NCBI GenBank assembly: GCA_965226795.1
Contig: CBDDDZ010000002.1
Coordinates: forward strand, 96,001-160,000
DNA length: 64,000 nucleotides
DNA from: Candidatus Latescibacterota bacterium
GTDB lineage: Bacteria > Latescibacterota > UBA2968 > GCA-2709665
Direction: 5' to 3'
Part shown: in pieces, positions 47,318 to 63,702 of the stretch
How positions within the stretch are numbered: position 1 is the stretch's first letter
How the letters are laid out: each line of letters starts with the position of its first letter
The notes under the pieces: generated by a model
The model's database searches: none
Told to the model about the DNA's origin: nothing
What the model saw: the letters and a program-made list of their open reading frames with translations, nothing else
Position numbers and translations under genes: made by a program

Positions 47318-47932
47318 AGTGTTCTGACCCGGAAATAGATTGCCGAAATTCGGCCGACCAGTTGCAGCAACAACAGCTATCAGCCGTCAGCTTGAATCAA
47401 AAACCCAATCCGTTGACGTCAACGTCGTGACCTCTCCCCCCGGCCCCCTCTCCTAAAGGAAAGGGGGTGGAAAACCTATATATCTAGCGGACGCCGGCAA
47501 TGACGAGATTCGGCTCACACGGAGACACGAAGACACAAAGGAAAAGACAGCGATCAGTGTTCGGTTGTTAGCTAAAACCGCGAGGCCATGCGGCGGGCCT
47601 TGCCGGTTTACCCCACCTGGAACCGGTGGTGTGGGGGCTTTTCCGCGCTAATCCGTTCAGCAACGTGGTACGGCGTCGCTCCCGAAGGGCCTCAGGGCAA
47701 TGCAATTCTTTAGTTCCTTCGAGGCGATTCGCGGAAAAGCAGCCCCGCGGCGTCTGAGCGGCGCCCTTCTTTTTCGCCCTTTTTCTTGGGCGATGCAAGA
47801 AAAAGGGCATGGGAATAGGGGACGTTAGGGGGTGGTGAGACGCGGTTGCTTCGACAAACTCGGTGCAGGCAATGCAGCGAGACGGGATGAATCGGCGGAA
47901 GAGTGGAAACATATTTCAGGGACGAGACACCA
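47318..47932 (-). mobile_element. TIR-MITE copy whose two ends enclose a stack of other repeats
   Basis: AGTGTTCTGACCCGGAAATAGATTGCCGAAATTCGGCCG at 47318 and GACGGGATGAATCGGCGG...TATTTCAGGGACGAGACACCA at 47881-47932. Confidence 0.6.
47605..47838 (+). repeat. ~230-nt structured dispersed element, copy 3
   Basis: GCTTTTCCGCG...CGCGGAAAAGC stem; same hairpin and tail as copy 1. Confidence 0.8.
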
Positions 47933-50816: not shown

Positions 50817-51280
50817 TAGATTGCGGGCTGAACGCGATCTTGAAAGAAGGGTGATATACAGGTGTTTGTGAATCCGTGGGTATGCGACGTCTGAAAGATG
50901 TCAGGCACCTGCGTCGGTTCCGCTTTTTCGCCCGTCGACTGCCCCGAAACGATGCGGTTGCGATCCCGGCACGATGCGTCAGAACACCACGTTAACGAAG
51001 GAGATGGGGCTGGGGCGGGGGTACCAGAGCCGGCAGCTTCTCCAGGAGTACCAGGGTGAGATCAGGAGAAGGAGCGTACCTGCCGACCACGGCGTTTTGT
51101 GCTCGAAGCTAAGCTATTCGGAAGCGAGGACACGTAGGCATCACGACGCCGGCACAGGTCAGGCTACCTGGCCGCATAGCCAATCGAGCCTCCGCAGCTG
51201 GCTGGAGTTGCTGCAGGTAGGATGATGTCTGAGGGCGCGGGAGTACCGGCATACGAACGAACTTTAAGGGCGAAAGTCAC

Positions 51281-51688
51281 CTATTCAATTTCCCACCAGA
51301 TGGAATTCGCGACGATAGCGTTACGGACTGCCATTTTCTTGCGTCCCTTTATCAGGGAGTGGGCATCGTTTGGGCCCTGAACAGGATCCTCAATCGGATC
51401 GTATATGACTTGCTGCTTCCAGTCCGGAACTATCTGACCCTCTCGTTTGGGATTGCGAGGATTCTTGATCTCGTCACAAACCGAGATTTCAATCACTCGG
51501 TTCTTTCCTTGCGCCACGTGGAAGGATGTTGTCGGATCAGGACGGAACCTCGCCCAGTCACAGGAGAGTTCGATATCACTAAACAGTGAGCCGGGTATCC
51601 CCACCTGGTCTTTCGGAAAGGCATCGCTGCGACACCACCTATATAGTACCTCACCATTTGGAATCACACTACCTGGAGATGGAGGCAT
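51281..51688 (-). CDS. Small putative ART/RES-like fold toxin
   Basis: EVLYR...LF...LSCDW...VIYDP...PNDAHSLIKG; overlaps the upstream gene by 20 nt. Confidence 0.55.
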   Translation of the reverse strand: MPPSPGSVIPNGEVLYRWCRSDAFPKDQVGIPGSLFSDIELSCDWARFRPDPTTSFHVAQGKNRVIEISVCDEIKNPRNPKREGQIVPDWKQQVIYDPIEDPVQGPNDAHSLIKGRKKMAVRNAIVANSIWWEIE

Positions 51689-52265
51689 ATTGAGAGGGTA
51701 CCATGCCGATCAGCTCGTTTCTCGATAAGTTTACTTCGAAATAGCTGCCACCGTATAACACTTCCAGGTCTACCCGTCCATTGTTCGTTATTGTCACGTT
51801 GATTGCATTATCGTCATCCGCATGAAGTTCAACGATTATTCCTCCACTTGGGATAGGGCCCATAACTATCCTCGGAATGACGCTGACTTCTTCACTGATA
51901 ACCCACTTGCTGATGGAGACAAGCAATGCCTGTGAAAGGAAAATCGCAGAGGAGGATGGCTTGACCGCGCCTCCCGATACCCAATCTGATTCGAGATTCT
52001 GCAACCCCCCGAGATAGCTGAATCTGTTGGACACGAGAGAGGCGAAATTTCGAAGCCCAGTTTCCTTCCAGTCGCCTGACCGGCCATGACGAAGGTCATT
52101 GACATCGCCAAAAACGGAAATATCCGAAGTGCAGGGGGTGTCTACCTTCTCGCCGAAACCTGAAACAGGAGTCGCCTCCGGTGTATTAAATGCGCGCACC
52201 TCGTCATCATTAAACACTGATGGCGACTCTTTCACGTAGGGTACTCGGACTGTGTCTAGGTCCAT
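51669..52265 (-). CDS. Hypothetical protein (low-complexity N-terminus + L..W..GGA..P...GPIPSGGIIVE domain), putative antitoxin
   Basis: Overlaps both neighbours; AT-richer than the flanks. Confidence 0.6.
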   Translation of the reverse strand: MDLDTVRVPYVKESPSVFNDDEVRAFNTPEATPVSGFGEKVDTPCTSDISVFGDVNDLRHGRSGDWKETGLRNFASLVSNRFSYLGGLQNLESDWVSGGAVKPSSSAIFLSQALLVSISKWVISEEVSVIPRIVMGPIPSGGIIVELHADDDNAINVTITNNGRVDLEVLYGGSYFEVNLSRNELIGMVPSQYASISR

Positions 52266-53011
52266 TGTTCAAGAATCTCCGGTGTGAAAATCCTGCTGAA
52301 GTGATCGTACTGGACCATGTGTGCCTTGTCAAACCAGGCGTCACTCGACTGATGTGGGTTGAGACCACGAAGGATGCTCTCGATCCGAAGGACCTGCTTT
52401 CCCCTGGCGTCAGGGGCCGTGTTCACCGCAAAAATGCCGTATCCGCCCAGAGGATCATACCTGTAGGTATAGCGTGAGACCAAATTGTTAAGCCCACATG
52501 GAGTCTTGATTTCCGGCGGCTTGATGCGCATGATTTTGTGGGCATCACTCAGGCTGGCGATGTGCTCTTGCCACTCGATACGATCATGATAGCTGAGGTC
52601 GTAGTATTTGACTGAATCCGTCGTGAAATCGGCGGAAGAAAGGCTTAGTGCATCGAGGGCTACCCTGAATTTGCGATATATAGCGGTGTAACCAGGATAG
52701 TTGCCGACTGGTTCATGGTCCGGACGAATCCAGTTGAGGTAGACTTTATTCACCTGTATTTGGCACATCCAATTGTCGTCGTCGCTGCGCAGGCGAATGA
52801 GGACAGGACCCATATTCTCGGGATTTACTTCCTGAGTGATTTGGAATCCAGACATCGTTTCGTCGACAAGGGGGGGACGGATTTCCACTCTCGGGTATTC
52901 GCCCGATAGGGCTTGCTGGGCGTCAAAGAGGTCCCTTATGGTTAGGCGTTCCCCCGAAAAGGTCACGCCAAAGATAACCTCGGATACTGGTGCCTTGGGG
53001 TATCTCTTCAT
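52256..53011 (-). CDS. TIGR04255-family protein
   Basis: N-terminal YPKAPVSEVIFGVTF, QIQ..KVYLNW, YPGY, LSYHDRI, WFDKAH...F...FT; 251 aa. Confidence 0.7.
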   Translation of the reverse strand: MKRYPKAPVSEVIFGVTFSGERLTIRDLFDAQQALSGEYPRVEIRPPLVDETMSGFQITQEVNPENMGPVLIRLRSDDDNWMCQIQVNKVYLNWIRPDHEPVGNYPGYTAIYRKFRVALDALSLSSADFTTDSVKYYDLSYHDRIEWQEHIASLSDAHKIMRIKPPEIKTPCGLNNLVSRYTYRYDPLGGYGIFAVNTAPDARGKQVLRIESILRGLNPHQSSDAWFDKAHMVQYDHFSRIFTPEILEQWT

Positions 53012-53599
53012 TAGTGTGTGAACGAGATGAAGATCGTGCGATGGTTGGCGGTAAGAGCTGCATGAATCACTGGGCGATTCAGTTGAAGGTGTTACTGAGT
53101 TGCTCCAAGTCAAGATTCCTGTTCTGTACAAAACACAGATCCGACTGATAAAGTCGACTGGGGCGCTCAATCCAGTTACGAACACAGATATGCTTGGCTC
53201 CTCGCACGGAGAGATATTGTCAATTGTTGTGCTCCTACCCGTCCGACGCTAACAGGTAGGCGAAGGTTCCCCAAGTTTAGGTTTAATAAGGGCCCTTTTT
53301 GGAGTCTCTGTCAAGGCAATTTGAGCACGCCAAGTTCGGGCAAGCTATCTTACAATCGACTGCCTGAACTTCGGTTGGGCTCCCAATAGGTTTGGTTGAC
53401 GGTCGGCCCGCATCGGCGGGCAACCCATTATTCGTGGAGGCCATTCAAGGCGCACCCCTTGGTACGTCCGTCACCGGGTGCCATCCAGAAGAAACTCGGG
53501 CGGCGCACTCGGCGGGGTCCTCGGCGAGAGCTCTGACCCCTCCAGATAGCGTCGGATCGAGGCCGGATCGGTCAGGCCGGCGATGATTCTCAGGCAACC

Positions 53600-58865: not shown

Positions 58866-61800
58866 ATGAAACTCGAAGATCTCCAACCCGACGCGTCGGT
58901 CCGTGGCATCGTTCCTGACGGTGTCGTGACCGTTGTGAACGTGCAATGGCACGGTTCCGGTGCGCTTACCCTGATCTACCGCCCGGCCTCCGGACGGGTC
59001 GCCGAGGAGATTCTCTACCGGCACGACGAGGCGCGCCTCGAAATCGTCGAGCAGGGCCGCCCCTGGAGTTTCGACGGCGACGGCGCGTTGTTCCGTCTCG
59101 TGTCGGAGGCCTACCGCATCCGTCTGGCCCATCTATTCGATCCCGTCCTTGCCGTACACACCTCGCTTGTTGAACCGCTCCCCCACCAGATCACGGCGGT
59201 GTATGAAGCGATGCTGCCCCGCCAGCCACTTCGCTTCCTGCTGGCGGACGACCCCGGCGCTGGCAAGACCATCATGGCAGGATTGTTGATGAAGGAACTC
59301 GTCGCCCGCGGCGACCTCAGGCGATGCCTGGTGGTATGTCCCGGCAGCCTCGCCGAGCAATGGCAGGATGAACTCTACAGGCGTTTCCACCTCCCTTTCG
59401 AGATACTGACGAACGACAAACTCGACGCCGCCCGTACGGGCAATTGGTTCCTCGAAAACGATCTCGCCATCGCACGGTTGGACAAACTCGCCCGCAACGA
59501 GGACCTCCAGGCCAAACTGAGCGCTCCGGACTGCCGCTACGATATGGTGGTCTGCGACGAAGCGCACAAAATGTCGGCGACCTTCTTCGGCGGCGAGGTG
59601 AGATACACCAAACGCTACCGCTTAGGGCAGCTCCTTTCCAATCTCACCCGTCACTTTCTGCTGATGACGGCGACCCCGCACAACGGCAAGGAGGCGGATT
59701 TTCAACTCTTCCTCGCCCTGCTGGACGGCGACCGTTTCGAGGGTCGATTCCGGGATGGCGTGCACCAGGTGGACGTTTCCGATCTCATGCGCCGCATGGT
59801 AAAGGAGAACCTGCTCAGATTCGACGGCCGACCGCTGTTCCCGGAGCGCATTGCGTATTCGGTACCCTACAAACTCACCGACGCCGAAGCCCGGCTGTAC
59901 AGGGAAGTCACGGACTACGTCCGCGAAGAGTTCAATCGCGCCGAGGCGCTGCAAAGCGACACCCGCGCGGGTACCGTCGGCTTTGCGCTCACCATCCTGC
60001 AACGCCGTCTCGCGTCATCACCCGAGGCGATCCACCAGTCGCTGAGGCGGCGGCGCGAGCGCCTGGAAAGCCGCCTACGCGAACTGAGCCTGCAGCAACG
60101 CGGCGCCAGGCAACCGGAAACGATCCCGCAGACCGGTCCATTATTCGATGCCGAGGACGTGGAGGACCTGGACGATGCCCCTTACGAGGAGGTCGAAGCC
60201 GCAGAGGCCGCGGTGCTGGATGAGGCAACAGCGGCCAGTACGATCGCCGAACTCAATGCGGAGATTGCTTCACTCAAATGGCTTGAGGGCCTTGCCGCGG
60301 AGATTCTAAAGAGCGGCGAAGACACGAAGTGGCGCGAACTCTCGAACCTGCTGGCAGAAATCTTTACGCCAGCCGGCCTGGGCGCCAGGGGTGGCGAAAA
60401 GGGCGAACCCTACGGCAGCGGCGCCATCCCGCCGCCCGTCCCGTCACCCAGCCAGAAGCTGGTCCTTTTCACCGAGCACAGGGACACCCTCAACTACCTC
60501 CAACGGCGTATCGCAACGCTGCTCGGCCGGCCCTCTGGCATCGTCACCATTCACGGTAGCATGGGGCGGGAGGATCGCCGCAAGGCCCAGGAGTCGTTCC
60601 TCCACGATCCGCTGGTGCAGGTGCTGCTCGCTACTGACGCGGCCGGGGAGGGCATCAACCTCCAGCGGGCCCATCTGATGGTGAACTACGACCTGCCGTG
60701 GAACCCGAACCGCATCGAACAGCGCTTCGGGCGCATCCACCGCATCGGCCAGACCGAGGTGTGTCATCTGTGGAACCTGGTAGCGGAAGAGACCCGGGAA
60801 GGCGACGTGTACCGGACCCTGTTGGACAAACTGGAGCAGGCCCGAAGCGCCCTCGGCGGCCAGGTCTTCGACGTGCTCGGCAGGCTTCAGTTCGATGGCC
60901 GCCCGCTCCGCGATCTGCTAATCGAGGCGATCCGTTACGGCGAGCAGCCCGAAGTGCGCGCACGACTATCCGAGGCGGTAAGCGAAGCCGTGGACCAGCC
61001 GCACCTGCAGTCCCTGATCGAGGAACAGGCCCTCGCGCAAGATGCGATGGATTCCACTCGTGTCGCACGAGTACGGGAGGAAATGGAGCGCGCCGAAGCC
61101 CGGCGATTGCAGCCGCACTATATCGAGTCGTTCTTCCTCGAAGCGTTCCGTCGCCTGGGGGGTTCGGTGCGGCGGCGCGAAACGGGCAGATACGAAATAA
61201 CGCACGTTCCGGCGCCTGTGCGCAACCGCGACAGGCAGATAGGCGTAGGCGAACCGGTTCTTGCGCGCTATGAACGCATTGCGTTCGACAAGGCATACCT
61301 GGCCCCGCACGGGCAAACGCCCGCGGCCTTCGTGTGTCCGGGACACGCCTTGCTCGACGCCGTTCTCGACCTCACATTGGAACGCCACCGCGACCTCCTG
61401 CAACGTGGCGCCGTGCTCGTGGACGAGCGGGACCCGGGCCTGGAAACGCGCGTGATCTTCTCGCTGGAGCATGCTATTAAGGACGGAAGTGTTTTGGCCA
61501 GTGGCGAGGGCCGTGTCATCTCACGCCGGACGCTTTATGTTGAGATCGATGCAGCCGGCGTGAAGCGCCGTCTCGACTACGCGCCGTACCTTGACTACCG
61601 GCCGCTGGCGGATCACGAACCCAAAGTGGCCGACATCCTTGACCGGCCGGAGTGCGGATGGATCACCCGAAAACTGGAGCAGCAGGCGCGGGAGGAGGCC
61701 ATTGCCAACATCGTGCCGGAACACCTTGGAGAGGTTCGCGACCGGCGCCTTGCTCTGGTTGCGAAAACCCGTGCCGCGGTTAAGGAGCGCCTGACCAAGG

Positions 61801-62438
61801 AAATGGCGTATTGGGATGGACAAGCAGAAAAGCGCAAGCTCCAGGAGAGAGCCGGAAAGGCCGGGGCAAAGCTCAACTCGCGCGAGGCCCAACGGCGCGC
61901 CGACGATCTGCAGGAGCGCCTCCATCAACGCACGGCCCAACTCGACCGGGAGGAGAAAATTTCAGCGCTCCCGCCCGCAGTCGTCGGCGGGCTTGTCGTC
62001 TTACCCATGGGACTTCTGGCAACCATGACCGGAGCCGCCGCACCGCGGCGAACCGTGGACACCCAGAAGTCGGCGGCAAAGGCTCGCGCCATCATCATGG
62101 AAGTGGAACGCGGCCTCGGATTCGAGCCCGTCGACCGGGAGACCGAACATCTCGGTTATGACATTGAGAGCCGGGTGCCGGGCACTGGTAAGCTCCGGTT
62201 CATCGAAGTGAAGGGCCGTCAGTCCGGTGGAGATACGATTACGGTGACGAAGAATGAGATCCTTACGGCGCTGAACAAACCGGACGATTTCATCCTCGGC
62301 ATCGTCGAGTTCCTGGATAGTGGTGAGCATCGAGTACACTACCTGCGCGAGCCCTTCCGAAGGGAGCCGGATTTCGACGTGACGAGCGTCAACTACAAGC
62401 TGAATGACTTGATCAAGCGGGCCGGGAAGCCGGCGTGA
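58866..62438 (+). CDS. SNF2-family helicase with C-terminal DUF3883 (NOV-C, nuclease-like) domain
   Basis: PLPHQ, LADDPGAGKT, DEAH, TATPH, EGINLQ, PWNPNRIEQRFGRIHRIGQ; GYDIESR...FIEVKG. Confidence 0.9.
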   Translation: MKLEDLQPDASVRGIVPDGVVTVVNVQWHGSGALTLIYRPASGRVAEEILYRHDEARLEIVEQGRPWSFDGDGALFRLVSEAYRIRLAHLFDPVLAVHTSLVEPLPHQITAVYEAMLPRQPLRFLLADDPGAGKTIMAGLLMKELVARGDLRRCLVVCPGSLAEQWQDELYRRFHLPFEILTNDKLDAARTGNWFLENDLAIARLDKLARNEDLQAKLSAPDCRYDMVVCDEAHKMSATFFGGEVRYTKRYRLGQLLSNLTRHFLLMTATPHNGKEADFQLFLALLDGDRFEGRFRDGVHQVDVSDLMRRMVKENLLRFDGRPLFPERIAYSVPYKLTDAEARLYREVTDYVREEFNRAEALQSDTRAGTVGFALTILQRRLASSPEAIHQSLRRRRERLESRLRELSLQQRGARQPETIPQTGPLFDAEDVEDLDDAPYEEVEAAEAAVLDEATAASTIAELNAEIASLKWLEGLAAEILKSGEDTKWRELSNLLAEIFTPAGLGARGGEKGEPYGSGAIPPPVPSPSQKLVLFTEHRDTLNYLQRRIATLLGRPSGIVTIHGSMGREDRRKAQESFLHDPLVQVLLATDAAGEGINLQRAHLMVNYDLPWNPNRIEQRFGRIHRIGQTEVCHLWNLVAEETREGDVYRTLLDKLEQARSALGGQVFDVLGRLQFDGRPLRDLLIEAIRYGEQPEVRARLSEAVSEAVDQPHLQSLIEEQALAQDAMDSTRVARVREEMERAEARRLQPHYIESFFLEAFRRLGGSVRRRETGRYEITHVPAPVRNRDRQIGVGEPVLARYERIAFDKAYLAPHGQTPAAFVCPGHALLDAVLDLTLERHRDLLQRGAVLVDERDPGLETRVIFSLEHAIKDGSVLASGEGRVISRRTLYVEIDAAGVKRRLDYAPYLDYRPLADHEPKVADILDRPECGWITRKLEQQAREEAIANIVPEHLGEVRDRRLALVAKTRAAVKERLTKEMAYWDGQAEKRKLQERAGKAGAKLNSREAQRRADDLQERLHQRTAQLDREEKISALPPAVVGGLVVLPMGLLATMTGAAAPRRTVDTQKSAAKARAIIMEVERGLGFEPVDRETEHLGYDIESRVPGTGKLRFIEVKGRQSGGDTITVTKNEILTALNKPDDFILGIVEFLDSGEHRVHYLREPFRREPDFDVTSVNYKLNDLIKRAGKPA

Positions 62439-62829: not shown

Positions 62830-63702
62830 ATGATCTATTATCTTCCGACCGTGCGCAGTACACGCGAGGGGTGGGAAACGCTCGCCAAACTCGCCAAAGT
62901 TGCTCAGGGTCTCTATTCGGATGAACTGCAACTCAACATGTCAAAGTTGGATTTTTTCGACGCCAACATGGCCGCACCCCTTGGCGCGATTCTTTCAAGG
63001 GTCGCTGACGGTTTCAATACCATTCGCATCGTCGATATGCCGGGCCCAGTCGAGACAATACTTCGCAAGAATCTGTTTCTAACTCATTATTGGTACAAAT
63101 CACTGGATGACAACAATAATACAACCATGCCATTTCGCCGGCTGCGCCTGAGTGACGAGGGTGAGTTCGAAGAATATATCCATTGGCAACTTACCGGAAG
63201 AGGCATCCCCAGAATGTCCGATGGCGCAAGCAGGATCTTCAAAAAAAAGGTTTTTGAAGTGTATCAGAATGCCGTATTCCATTCTGAATCAAATCTTGGT
63301 GTCTTCGTCTGTGGCCAGTTTTTCCCGCAACAGAACCGGCTTGATTTTACGGTTGCAGATGCCGGTATCGGAATTCGAGAGAATGTTCGTCGGTATTTCA
63401 ATAATCCTCGTATCAACTCGCTTCCAGCTCTCAAATGGGCACTCGAGCCATATCACACCACGAAAAGTGGGCCGTATCCCGGTGGGTTAGGCCTTGAGTT
63501 TCTACAGAAATTCGCTCGTCTGAATGACGGTAAGATTCAGATTGCCTCCCGTTTCGCATTCTATGAGTTAAGCCGTGGCACGGAAACTTTCGCGAATATG
63601 GCGGTTGACTTTCCCGGGACTGCCGTAACCATTGAAATTAACACTGCAGATGAGAGTATTTATTTCCTGGAGAGTAAAAGAAAAGCCGACAGTCCGTATT
63701 GA
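62830..63702 (+). CDS. STAS-like + HATPase_c ATP-binding protein
   Basis: EVYQNAVFHS (N box), VADAGIGI (G1), GGLGL (G2), FPGT; no His phospho-acceptor domain. Confidence 0.8.
   Translation: MIYYLPTVRSTREGWETLAKLAKVAQGLYSDELQLNMSKLDFFDANMAAPLGAILSRVADGFNTIRIVDMPGPVETILRKNLFLTHYWYKSLDDNNNTTMPFRRLRLSDEGEFEEYIHWQLTGRGIPRMSDGASRIFKKKVFEVYQNAVFHSESNLGVFVCGQFFPQQNRLDFTVADAGIGIRENVRRYFNNPRINSLPALKWALEPYHTTKSGPYPGGLGLEFLQKFARLNDGKIQIASRFAFYELSRGTETFANMAVDFPGTAVTIEINTADESIYFLESKRKADSPY

Follow-up and report, generated by a model that had tools for sequence, protein, structure and literature searches.

A stretch of 64,000 nucleotides from a Candidatus Latescibacterota bacterium (hereafter, the window) carries a three-gene cassette, encoding ORF1, ORF2 and ORF3, that is real, mobile and widely shared, and parts of which were flagged earlier by two computational screens. 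We consider it very probable that ORF3 is a toxin of the ADP-ribosyltransferase (ART) fold bearing an R17-S42-H110 set and, jointly with this, that the conserved domain of ORF2 neutralises it. ORF1 belongs to the TIGR04255 family, which no paper that we found mentions by name, and the triad is likewise undescribed in the literature on TACs (toxin–antitoxin–chaperone systems), Panacea and Tse2; both searches covered the openly searchable literature.

The three open reading frames overlap on the minus strand as originally predicted (251, 198 and 135 aa, with 10 nt shared by ORF1 and ORF2 and 20 nt by ORF2 and ORF3; Table 1). We took the ATG at 53011 as the start of ORF1, although its frame stays open as far as a GTG at 53185. 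The 10-nt overlap was seen again in 32 of 53 triads, which argues that the arrangement did not arise by chance. The proposal that the genes form an AT-richer island also held: their GC content of 0.51 compares with 0.609 across the window, equally low values occurred in 1.1% of 623 segments of equal length, and the GC3 of the triad genes (0.54–0.62) lies below that of both flanking genes (0.66 and 0.78). None of the three proteins matched Pfam, profile searches of the PDB with each of them returned nothing significant, and a promoter scan yielded nothing above chance. Triad DNA was present in metatranscriptome contigs (four runs from two studies), one of which covers 51451-52770; since the flanks were present at similar depth, these contigs do not prove that the triad is transcribed.

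Table 1 Features of the cassette and its insertion site (positions in the window)
Feature	Position	Strand	Description	Basis
ORF1	52256..53011	-	TIGR04255 family, 251 aa	NCBIfam match, AlphaFold2 model
ORF2, whole	51669..52265	-	198 aa	
ORF2 variable tail, residues 1-70	52056..52265	-	Putative ORF1-binding element	
ORF2 conserved domain, residues 71-198	51669..52055	-	Candidate antitoxin of ORF3	
ORF3	51281..51688	-	135 aa, ART-superfamily fold, putative NAD-using toxin	
ORF3 Arg17 codon	51638..51640	-	Strand 1, ART motif I position	
ORF3 Ser42 codon	51563..51565	-	Strand 2, ART motif II position	
ORF3 His110 codon	51359..51361	-	Probable motif III position (Glu in R-S-E enzymes)	
Variable site holding the cassette	50817..53599	.	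Flanks: heparinase-like gene, ECF sigma/anti-sigma operon	

We assessed the conservation of the triad by scanning GTDB genomes with the ORF3 alignment, which yielded 26 loci, and metagenomes, which yielded 39 more; four of the total of 65 are exact duplicates, and the search profiles were built in part from the GTDB loci. An ORF2 homologue lay directly upstream of ORF3 in all 26 GTDB loci, and phmmer recovered an ORF1 homologue in 22, with a divergent TIGR04255 gene in two more. ORF3 is a fragment in two loci (L026 and L027), and ORF1 is shortened or split in two others (L002 and L008). Across the 65 loci, 53 carried both ORF1 and ORF2, one more had a partial ORF1 at a contig edge, five were Panacea fusions and six ended before the upstream genes could be judged. 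All three genes were therefore kept in 54 of 59 informative loci, which shows the triad to be conserved, and the remaining five are pairs of a Panacea–ORF2 fusion and ORF3. Among the hosts are Latescibacterota, Spirochaetota, Bacteroidota, Balneolota, Ignavibacteriota, Gemmatimonadota, Sericytochromatia and Pseudomonadota. At the site itself, five of 14 congeners carried triad DNA, damaged in two of them: ORF3 is interrupted beside an intact ORF1 and ORF2 in G053, and ORF1 is partly missing in G045. The site was empty in G051 and G057 and held unrelated cargo in other congeners, the cargo of relatives consisting of sterol-methyltransferase genes and not of defence genes. These results show that the triad is coupled and moves as a unit, and that the site is variable and is not a defence hotspot.

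The AlphaFold2 model of ORF3 (pLDDT 95) best matched KptA in a wide structural search (Z 6.8, rmsd 3.0 A, 90 residues aligned), followed by Tpt1 (Z 6.2), Tse2 (Z 5.7, 3.1 A, 98 aligned, 17% identity) and AvrPphF (Z 5.2); the best 50 matches are, we take it, ART-fold proteins throughout. Because every Z was below 8 and single values were middling, the assignment relies on the uniformity of this list together with the conserved motif. Foldseek gave weak matches, with Tne2 and RhsP2 at the top and none with E <0.001. The LYR, LSCD, DP and NxAH motifs from which an ART-like fold had been proposed were all found, and the fold itself is upheld by the model and the match list. To define the conserved residues, we aligned 104 family members after excluding fragments, long forms and several near-copies; 88 proteins had come from a profile search across 1.84 billion representatives. 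Position 17 is R or K in 93/104 members and lies on model strand E14-19. Ser42, on strand E40-45, is present in 104/104 (alignment A3) and in 46/47 of alignment A1, with one homologue carrying Pro at this position among the sequences left out of the larger set. His110, on strand E110-114, is present in 104/104. The strands that carry these residues would be strands 1, 2 and 5 of the ART fold. Model and alignment thus show that ORF3 has a predicted ART fold in which R17, S42 and H110 form a conserved set.

The R-S or RES-type pattern named in the original prediction stood for its R and S; its third residue is His and not Glu in all 104 members, none of which matched the Pfam RES domain or the Pfam ART families. 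Tse2 has an Arg-Ser-His triad of its own, and R, S and H were invariant in eleven Tse2-family homologues. The Tse2 profile (PF18648) nevertheless showed no similarity to the ORF3 family (hhalign 0.2%, HMM E >1, no Pfam match), and Tse2 differs in that it is secreted as an antibacterial effector and its immunity gene lies downstream. PDC-M32B profiles matched 18 of the 104 members but not ORF3 itself directly, and the R, S and H positions aligned between the family and a distant set including PDC-M32B (hhalign 98.5%). The usual ART clades, as given in the available part of bioRxiv 10.1101/2020.07.21.169896, are H-H-h, H-Y-[EDQ] and R-S-E, and the predicted R-S-H signature lies outside all three. 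With KptA, Tse2, Tne2 and RhsP2 as structural neighbours, transfer to nucleic acid or NAD hydrolysis would be the likeliest putative activity. Searches of 50,697 phage and 72,556 plasmid records returned no ORF3 match.

ORF2 divides into a tail and a conserved domain. The description of its N-terminus as low in complexity failed, as the entropy of the first 70 residues (3.9 bits) is not below that of the next 70 (3.7 bits). The tail is instead variable, polar and likely disordered: among 17 distant homologues its identity is 13% against 31% for the domain, FoldIndex was <0 for 17/34 tails and 0/34 domains, and tail length ranges from 37 to 100 aa. In one homologous tail (L013), a unit of 16 residues that includes aromatics occurs five times, reminiscent of the spaced aromatics of a ChAD, and the ORF2 tail is acidic, as is ORF1. 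Turning to the domain, residues 85-168 weakly matched positions 265-340 of the PDC-M32A profile (E 9.7e-5, PADLOC), and the domain is common to the second genes of 20 distant cassettes (hhalign 91.8%, E 7.4e-7). It is fused behind SocA/Panacea in five loci (L020, L021, L091, L094 and L103; E 8e-18 to 2e-12). No ORF1 lies upstream in four of these, the fifth (L094) having 59 nt of upstream DNA alone, and the two Panacea-fusion genomes searched for TIGR04255 gave no match. As the five forms make up one clade (support 100/99), the swap counts as a single event, that is, one natural experiment.

In PDC-M32 loci, the ORF2-type domain ends a protein of ~375 aa and an ORF3-like gene comes next. The ORF2 domain and ORF3 thus appear to be a constant core to which at least three exchangeable front ends are attached: the tail with TIGR04255, Panacea, or the PDC-M32A N-terminal domain. 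The simplest reading of this core would be a toxin–antitoxin pair, with the domain as putative antitoxin on account of its obligate pairing with ORF3 and its fusion to Panacea, itself a known antitoxin domain. The antitoxin-like role envisaged for ORF2 is therefore retained for its domain, for which both the Panacea fusion and the kinship with PDC-M32A speak.

ORF1 matched TIGR04255 with an E-value of 5.9e-20 (72.1 bits, cut-off 30; NCBIfam), and searches of the ESM Atlas led to TIGR04255 or nameless clusters, with DUF6098 as a distant lead. Its AlphaFold2 model (pLDDT 93.2) is a curved antiparallel beta-sheet with helices behind. The best structural match was the McsB kinase domain (Z 8.0, rmsd 4.9 A, 181 aligned, 8% identity), followed by guanido kinases, Rep, AdoMetDC and TBP, the last three folds at Z 5.4-6.0; a viral fold library also gave loose TBP-like matches (best TM 0.45). 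Sequence similarity to SecB, whose fold had been raised as a candidate at the outset, did not emerge. At E up to 1, ORF1 had no sequence match to SecB or to CmdC/PD-T4-9_C, in searches that recovered the SecB-like protein of locus L079 as a control (2e-17 and 2.5e-13), and SecB was absent from the best 50 structural matches. Seven positions, and no others, were kept in at least 70% of 48 family sequences (P8, E11, P40, Y105, L139, Y141 and F238). McsB and the guanido kinases share a conserved catalytic set of Arg, Glu and Cys, and this set was not conserved in the 48 sequences. The net charge of ORF1 is -4 and the family median -7, with 2/48 members positive and no conserved basic residue. The mostly Pro and aromatic nature of the conserved positions and the acidic character of the family speak against ORF1 being an enzyme or a DNA-binding protein; it would rather be a regulator, chaperone or sensor, of ORF2. 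An internal duplication hinted at by secondary structure was not detected by hhalign (0.75%).

Next, we asked what follows TIGR04255 genes elsewhere. The family was present in 45/168 genomes of the Latescibacterota phylum and in 7/401 of one gammaproteobacterial order. Of the 56 other matches in the phylum we analyzed the neighbourhoods of 48, and in the order those of all 7; 35 of these 55 loci are near-copies or belong to a few genera within one phylum. By raw count, a second ORF begins ≤35 nt from the TIGR04255 stop in 54/55 loci, and a third lies within 45 nt of the second in 50/55. Third genes were ORF3-like by profile in 28 loci, of which 6 match by construction and 7 are close orthologues. 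The others comprised three HEPN-like genes (one by Pfam, two by eye), one DUF7689, seven of one family without a name, eleven of another, and other unassigned genes at five loci. Seven third genes that begin with MFLARK, in which R, S and H could be seen by eye, were not counted as ORF3-like, since they failed to align to the ORF3 profiles (0.4% and 3.0%). Eleven 'QGD...CD' third genes, which look PemK-like, had no Pfam match among the three scanned and no PDB match with a profile of 8. Thus, the genes in second and third place of cassettes headed by TIGR04255 are variable, a pattern also seen with the SecB-like chaperones of TACs.

In a PADLOC scan of the gene neighbourhoods, covering 148/213 neighbouring ORFs at 28 loci, about 8/28 loci by raw count had clear defence neighbours and about 20/28 lay among ordinary genes. 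The neighbours included a CBASS cyclase with PDC-M19A (L010), Lamassu LmuB/C (L099), a MqsRAC TAC (L079), PDC-S73 (L094), PDC-M29B (L018), PDC-M69B (L023), a DRT-associated protein (L024) and a HipA-like kinase (L009). Within the window itself, 5.9 kb separate the triad from the start of HmaA. PDCs are described as untested candidates in the accessible text of Payne et al. (bioRxiv 10.1101/2024.01.29.577857). Among the rows listed in the portion of DefensePredictor Table S4 available to us (PMC13092281), all eight TIGR04255 rows are labelled 'Predicted novel defense gene', with log-odds of 4.7-9.3.

As the original prediction supposed, none of the named and tested systems in PADLOC, Pfam, NCBIfam or the searched literature matched the triad. 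The triad resembles CmdTAC (PD-T4-9; PMC11618068) and other TACs such as HigBAC (Mets et al., bioRxiv 10.1101/2024.02.24.581848), as far as the available excerpts of these papers describe them, in its three genes, its predicted ART-fold toxin, the likely unstructured tail on its middle protein and the putative control of the antitoxin by a third protein; excerpts of PMC13069673, PMC12429752 and PMC9846239 served as further sources for the comparison of mechanisms. In contrast to the SecB-like chaperone described there, ORF1 has no SecB or CmdC sequence match. The gene order, regulator–antitoxin–toxin, is the reverse of that of TACs. ORF2 has its tail at the N-terminus and the conserved domain at the other end, whereas CmdA and HigA carry a C-terminal ChAD in these excerpts, and the antitoxin is a folded domain of ~130 aa rather than the helical pair of CmdTAC. 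The toxin residues are R-S-H and not the H-Y-[EDQ] given for CmdT in the excerpt of PMC11618068, and PD-T4-9 profiles matched none of the three ORFs. Of the CmdTAC-like design first proposed, the predicted ART-fold toxin and the likely disordered tail were thus retained; the end bearing the tail, the gene order and the toxin triad differ from CmdTAC, and ORF1 shows no SecB sequence similarity. By analogy, the cassette probably operates in the manner of a TAC, but on these differences it falls outside that group.

Other known systems share parts of the cassette. PDC-M32, which in the searchable literature receives a passing mention alone, has kin of the ORF2 domain at the C-terminus of PDC-M32A and a member of the ORF3 family in PDC-M32B, but it has two genes, and an N-terminal domain of ~250 aa in PDC-M32A replaces ORF1 and the tail; this domain did not match the TIGR04255 profile, nor did ORF1 match PDC-M32A. 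Panacea (PanA/SocA) pairs are represented by the five homologous fusion loci and differ in that the copy in the window has no Panacea domain; an ART toxin partner is not described for them in the available part of PMC10440598, where AarT is RNase-like. DS-42/PRO1, a validated three-gene anti-phage unit of similar outline in the accessible part of the DefensePredictor supplement (PMC13092281), comprises a 238-aa gene 1, a 190-aa protein and then an MBL hydrolase effector, and ORF3 is not an MBL protein. A 60%-identical homologue of DS-42 gene 1 carries the UniRef label 'TIGR04255 family', but neither NCBIfam nor hhalign found similarity between gene 1 and TIGR04255, the profile being shallow (Neff 2.5).

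Taken together, these observations suggest a mechanism in which ORF3 would act as an NAD-using toxin of predicted ART fold, neutralised by the C-terminal domain of ORF2, and the TIGR04255 protein would bind the disordered ORF2 tail and so keep the antitoxin working. By analogy with CmdTAC and HigBAC only, a phage protein would displace the tail from ORF1, the antitoxin would be lost and the cell would abort infection. That ORF1 may act on the tail is suggested by their joint replacement by Panacea and by the presence of TIGR04255 ahead of unrelated second and third genes. To the whole chain, a TAC-like system with a phage-triggered chaperone or sensor that is not SecB, we assign slightly less than an even chance; against it stand the half of tails not scored as disordered, the acidity of both tail and ORF1, and the missing Glu of R-S-E enzymes. 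An anti-phage role of the triad as such is, on balance, likely. The alternative that the cassette is a selfish or stress-linked toxin–antitoxin module, in which ORF1 is a constitutive helper or a second antitoxin and senses no phage, would suit the roughly 20 of 28 loci that lack a clear neighbour of this kind and the patchy gain, loss and decay typical of addiction modules. We regard it as unlikely, given that the core pair is related to PDC-M32, one of a class of candidates picked from genes that lie inside defence systems (in the available text of its source), that DefensePredictor, in the rows available, scores TIGR04255 as defensive, and that the ART toxins CmdT and DarT are anti-phage according to the excerpt of PMC11618068.

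The evidence from Panacea and McsB fits a protease adaptor equally well, as both are adaptors of this kind: SocA routes SocB to a Clp-type protease, and McsB is likewise a Clp adaptor. ORF1 would then engage the ORF2 tail and route ORF2–ORF3 to such a protease until a phage blocked the disposal. SocA/Panacea is indeed the module that replaces ORF1 and the tail, and McsB tops the ORF1 matches; this match is nonetheless loose, with TBP, AdoMetDC and Rep following it in the list, and Panacea also neutralises toxins directly, as stated in the accessible part of the NetFlax paper (PMC10440598), so that we judge the adaptor improbable. We think it still more improbable that ORF3 repairs or processes its substrate with NAD in the manner of KptA/Tpt1, or has an ART fold without catalytic activity, and forms a repair complex with ORF1 and ORF2. 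KptA and Tpt1 do head its structural matches and it has no catalytic Glu, but KptA-type enzymes are H-H-h and ORF3 is R-S-H, ORF3 always accompanies the ORF2 domain in informative loci, and a HEPN domain takes its slot in another cassette; the broken ORF3 beside intact ORF1 and ORF2 in G053 is, moreover, the common pattern where the toxin is the first part to be lost. Least credible of all is a nucleic-acid-binding ORF1 whose TBP-like saddle controls expression of the downstream pair: TBP and Rep_trans recur among its matches, but TM-scores are about 0.25, the protein and its family are acidic without a conserved basic residue, and the ORF2 tail would be left unexplained.

Returning to the TAC-like reading, we tentatively extend it to the family: TIGR04255 may represent a second class of addiction chaperone or phage sensor, distinct from SecB, that binds disordered N-terminal tags of otherwise unrelated antitoxins. 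With equal reserve, its warheads would include a widespread and hitherto undescribed family of R-S-H ART toxins, HEPN, DUF7689 and several further families, and it could be swapped for Panacea or the PDC-M32A N-terminal domain. A two-gene Panacea form occurs naturally in a cultured gammaproteobacterium, so that a domain swap can test the central claim directly. If the TAC-like reading is true, TIGR04255 would gain a function, tied to three-gene cassettes with exchangeable effectors; a family of R-S-H ART toxins would be added and the candidate PDC-M32 explained; and chaperone-gated toxin release would have evolved a second time, with another fold and with the tag at the opposite end of the antitoxin.

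A second domain resembling the one conserved in ORF2, the inferred antitoxin of the triad, is encoded in the window's own genome as a free ORF, which is preceded by a 322-aa gene of unknown family; an adjoining ORF3-like gene was looked for at this locus and none was found. In Treponema vincentii, the variable tail of ORF2 contains a tandem array of five 16-residue units, each bearing aromatic residues. Among homologues of ORF3, the predicted toxin, several of 175–229 aa (P0042, P0044 and P0046; loci L101 and L106–L109) are lengthened at the C-terminus by a segment that is hydrophobic in the cases seen and resembles a membrane anchor. The loci listed for extended homologues are various (L042, L044–L046, L050 and L084–L113).

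Coordinates of features in the window and at other loci
Feature	Position	Strand	Detail
Second ORF2-like domain, window's own genome	L161:1603-3136 (G000:C5, about 88500-90040)		free 134-aa ORF; C-terminal part of the phage defence candidate PDC-M32A, E 1.4e-37
T. vincentii ORF2 tail	L013:5328-6020		
HmaA helicase (Hma defence system), then low-GC genes	window 58866-62438, 62830-63702	+	PADLOC E 0 for HmaA
Complete MqsR-MqsA-SecB toxin-antitoxin-chaperone system	L079:4518-5835	-	tail-to-tail with homologous triad
Repeated element	window 47318-47880		
RNA contig end point	window 53390-53394		

Defence genes lie near both the window's triad and a homologous one; the genes following HmaA have a GC content of 0.49 and may be Hma-embedded cargo. 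In four congeners, the triad's site is occupied by a sterol methyltransferase gene, single or accompanied by a small cluster, called by a PF08498 match in L119 (G052) and by eye in L116 (G047), L118 (G054) and L120 (G055).

Across the repeated element, which may be a REP-like repeat or a highly abundant small RNA, four metatranscriptomes showed high depth and many loose ends. About 380 nt upstream of ORF1, RNA contigs break off in two runs belonging to a single study, which weakly hints at a 5′ end.

Tse2-like genes followed by a small acidic gene were present in 8 of 401 gammaproteobacterial genomes (L128–L141), several apparently as stand-alone pairs. The gammaproteobacterial TIGR04255 cassettes L070–L072 and L074 have a second gene of ~195 aa and a third of ~275 aa, and Pfam and PADLOC scans gave zero matches among those scanned. 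In the TIGR04255 cassettes L028–L035, L040, L044, L045 and L052, the third gene (185–230 aa) bears a QGD...CD motif, belongs to no known family and is a candidate new effector.
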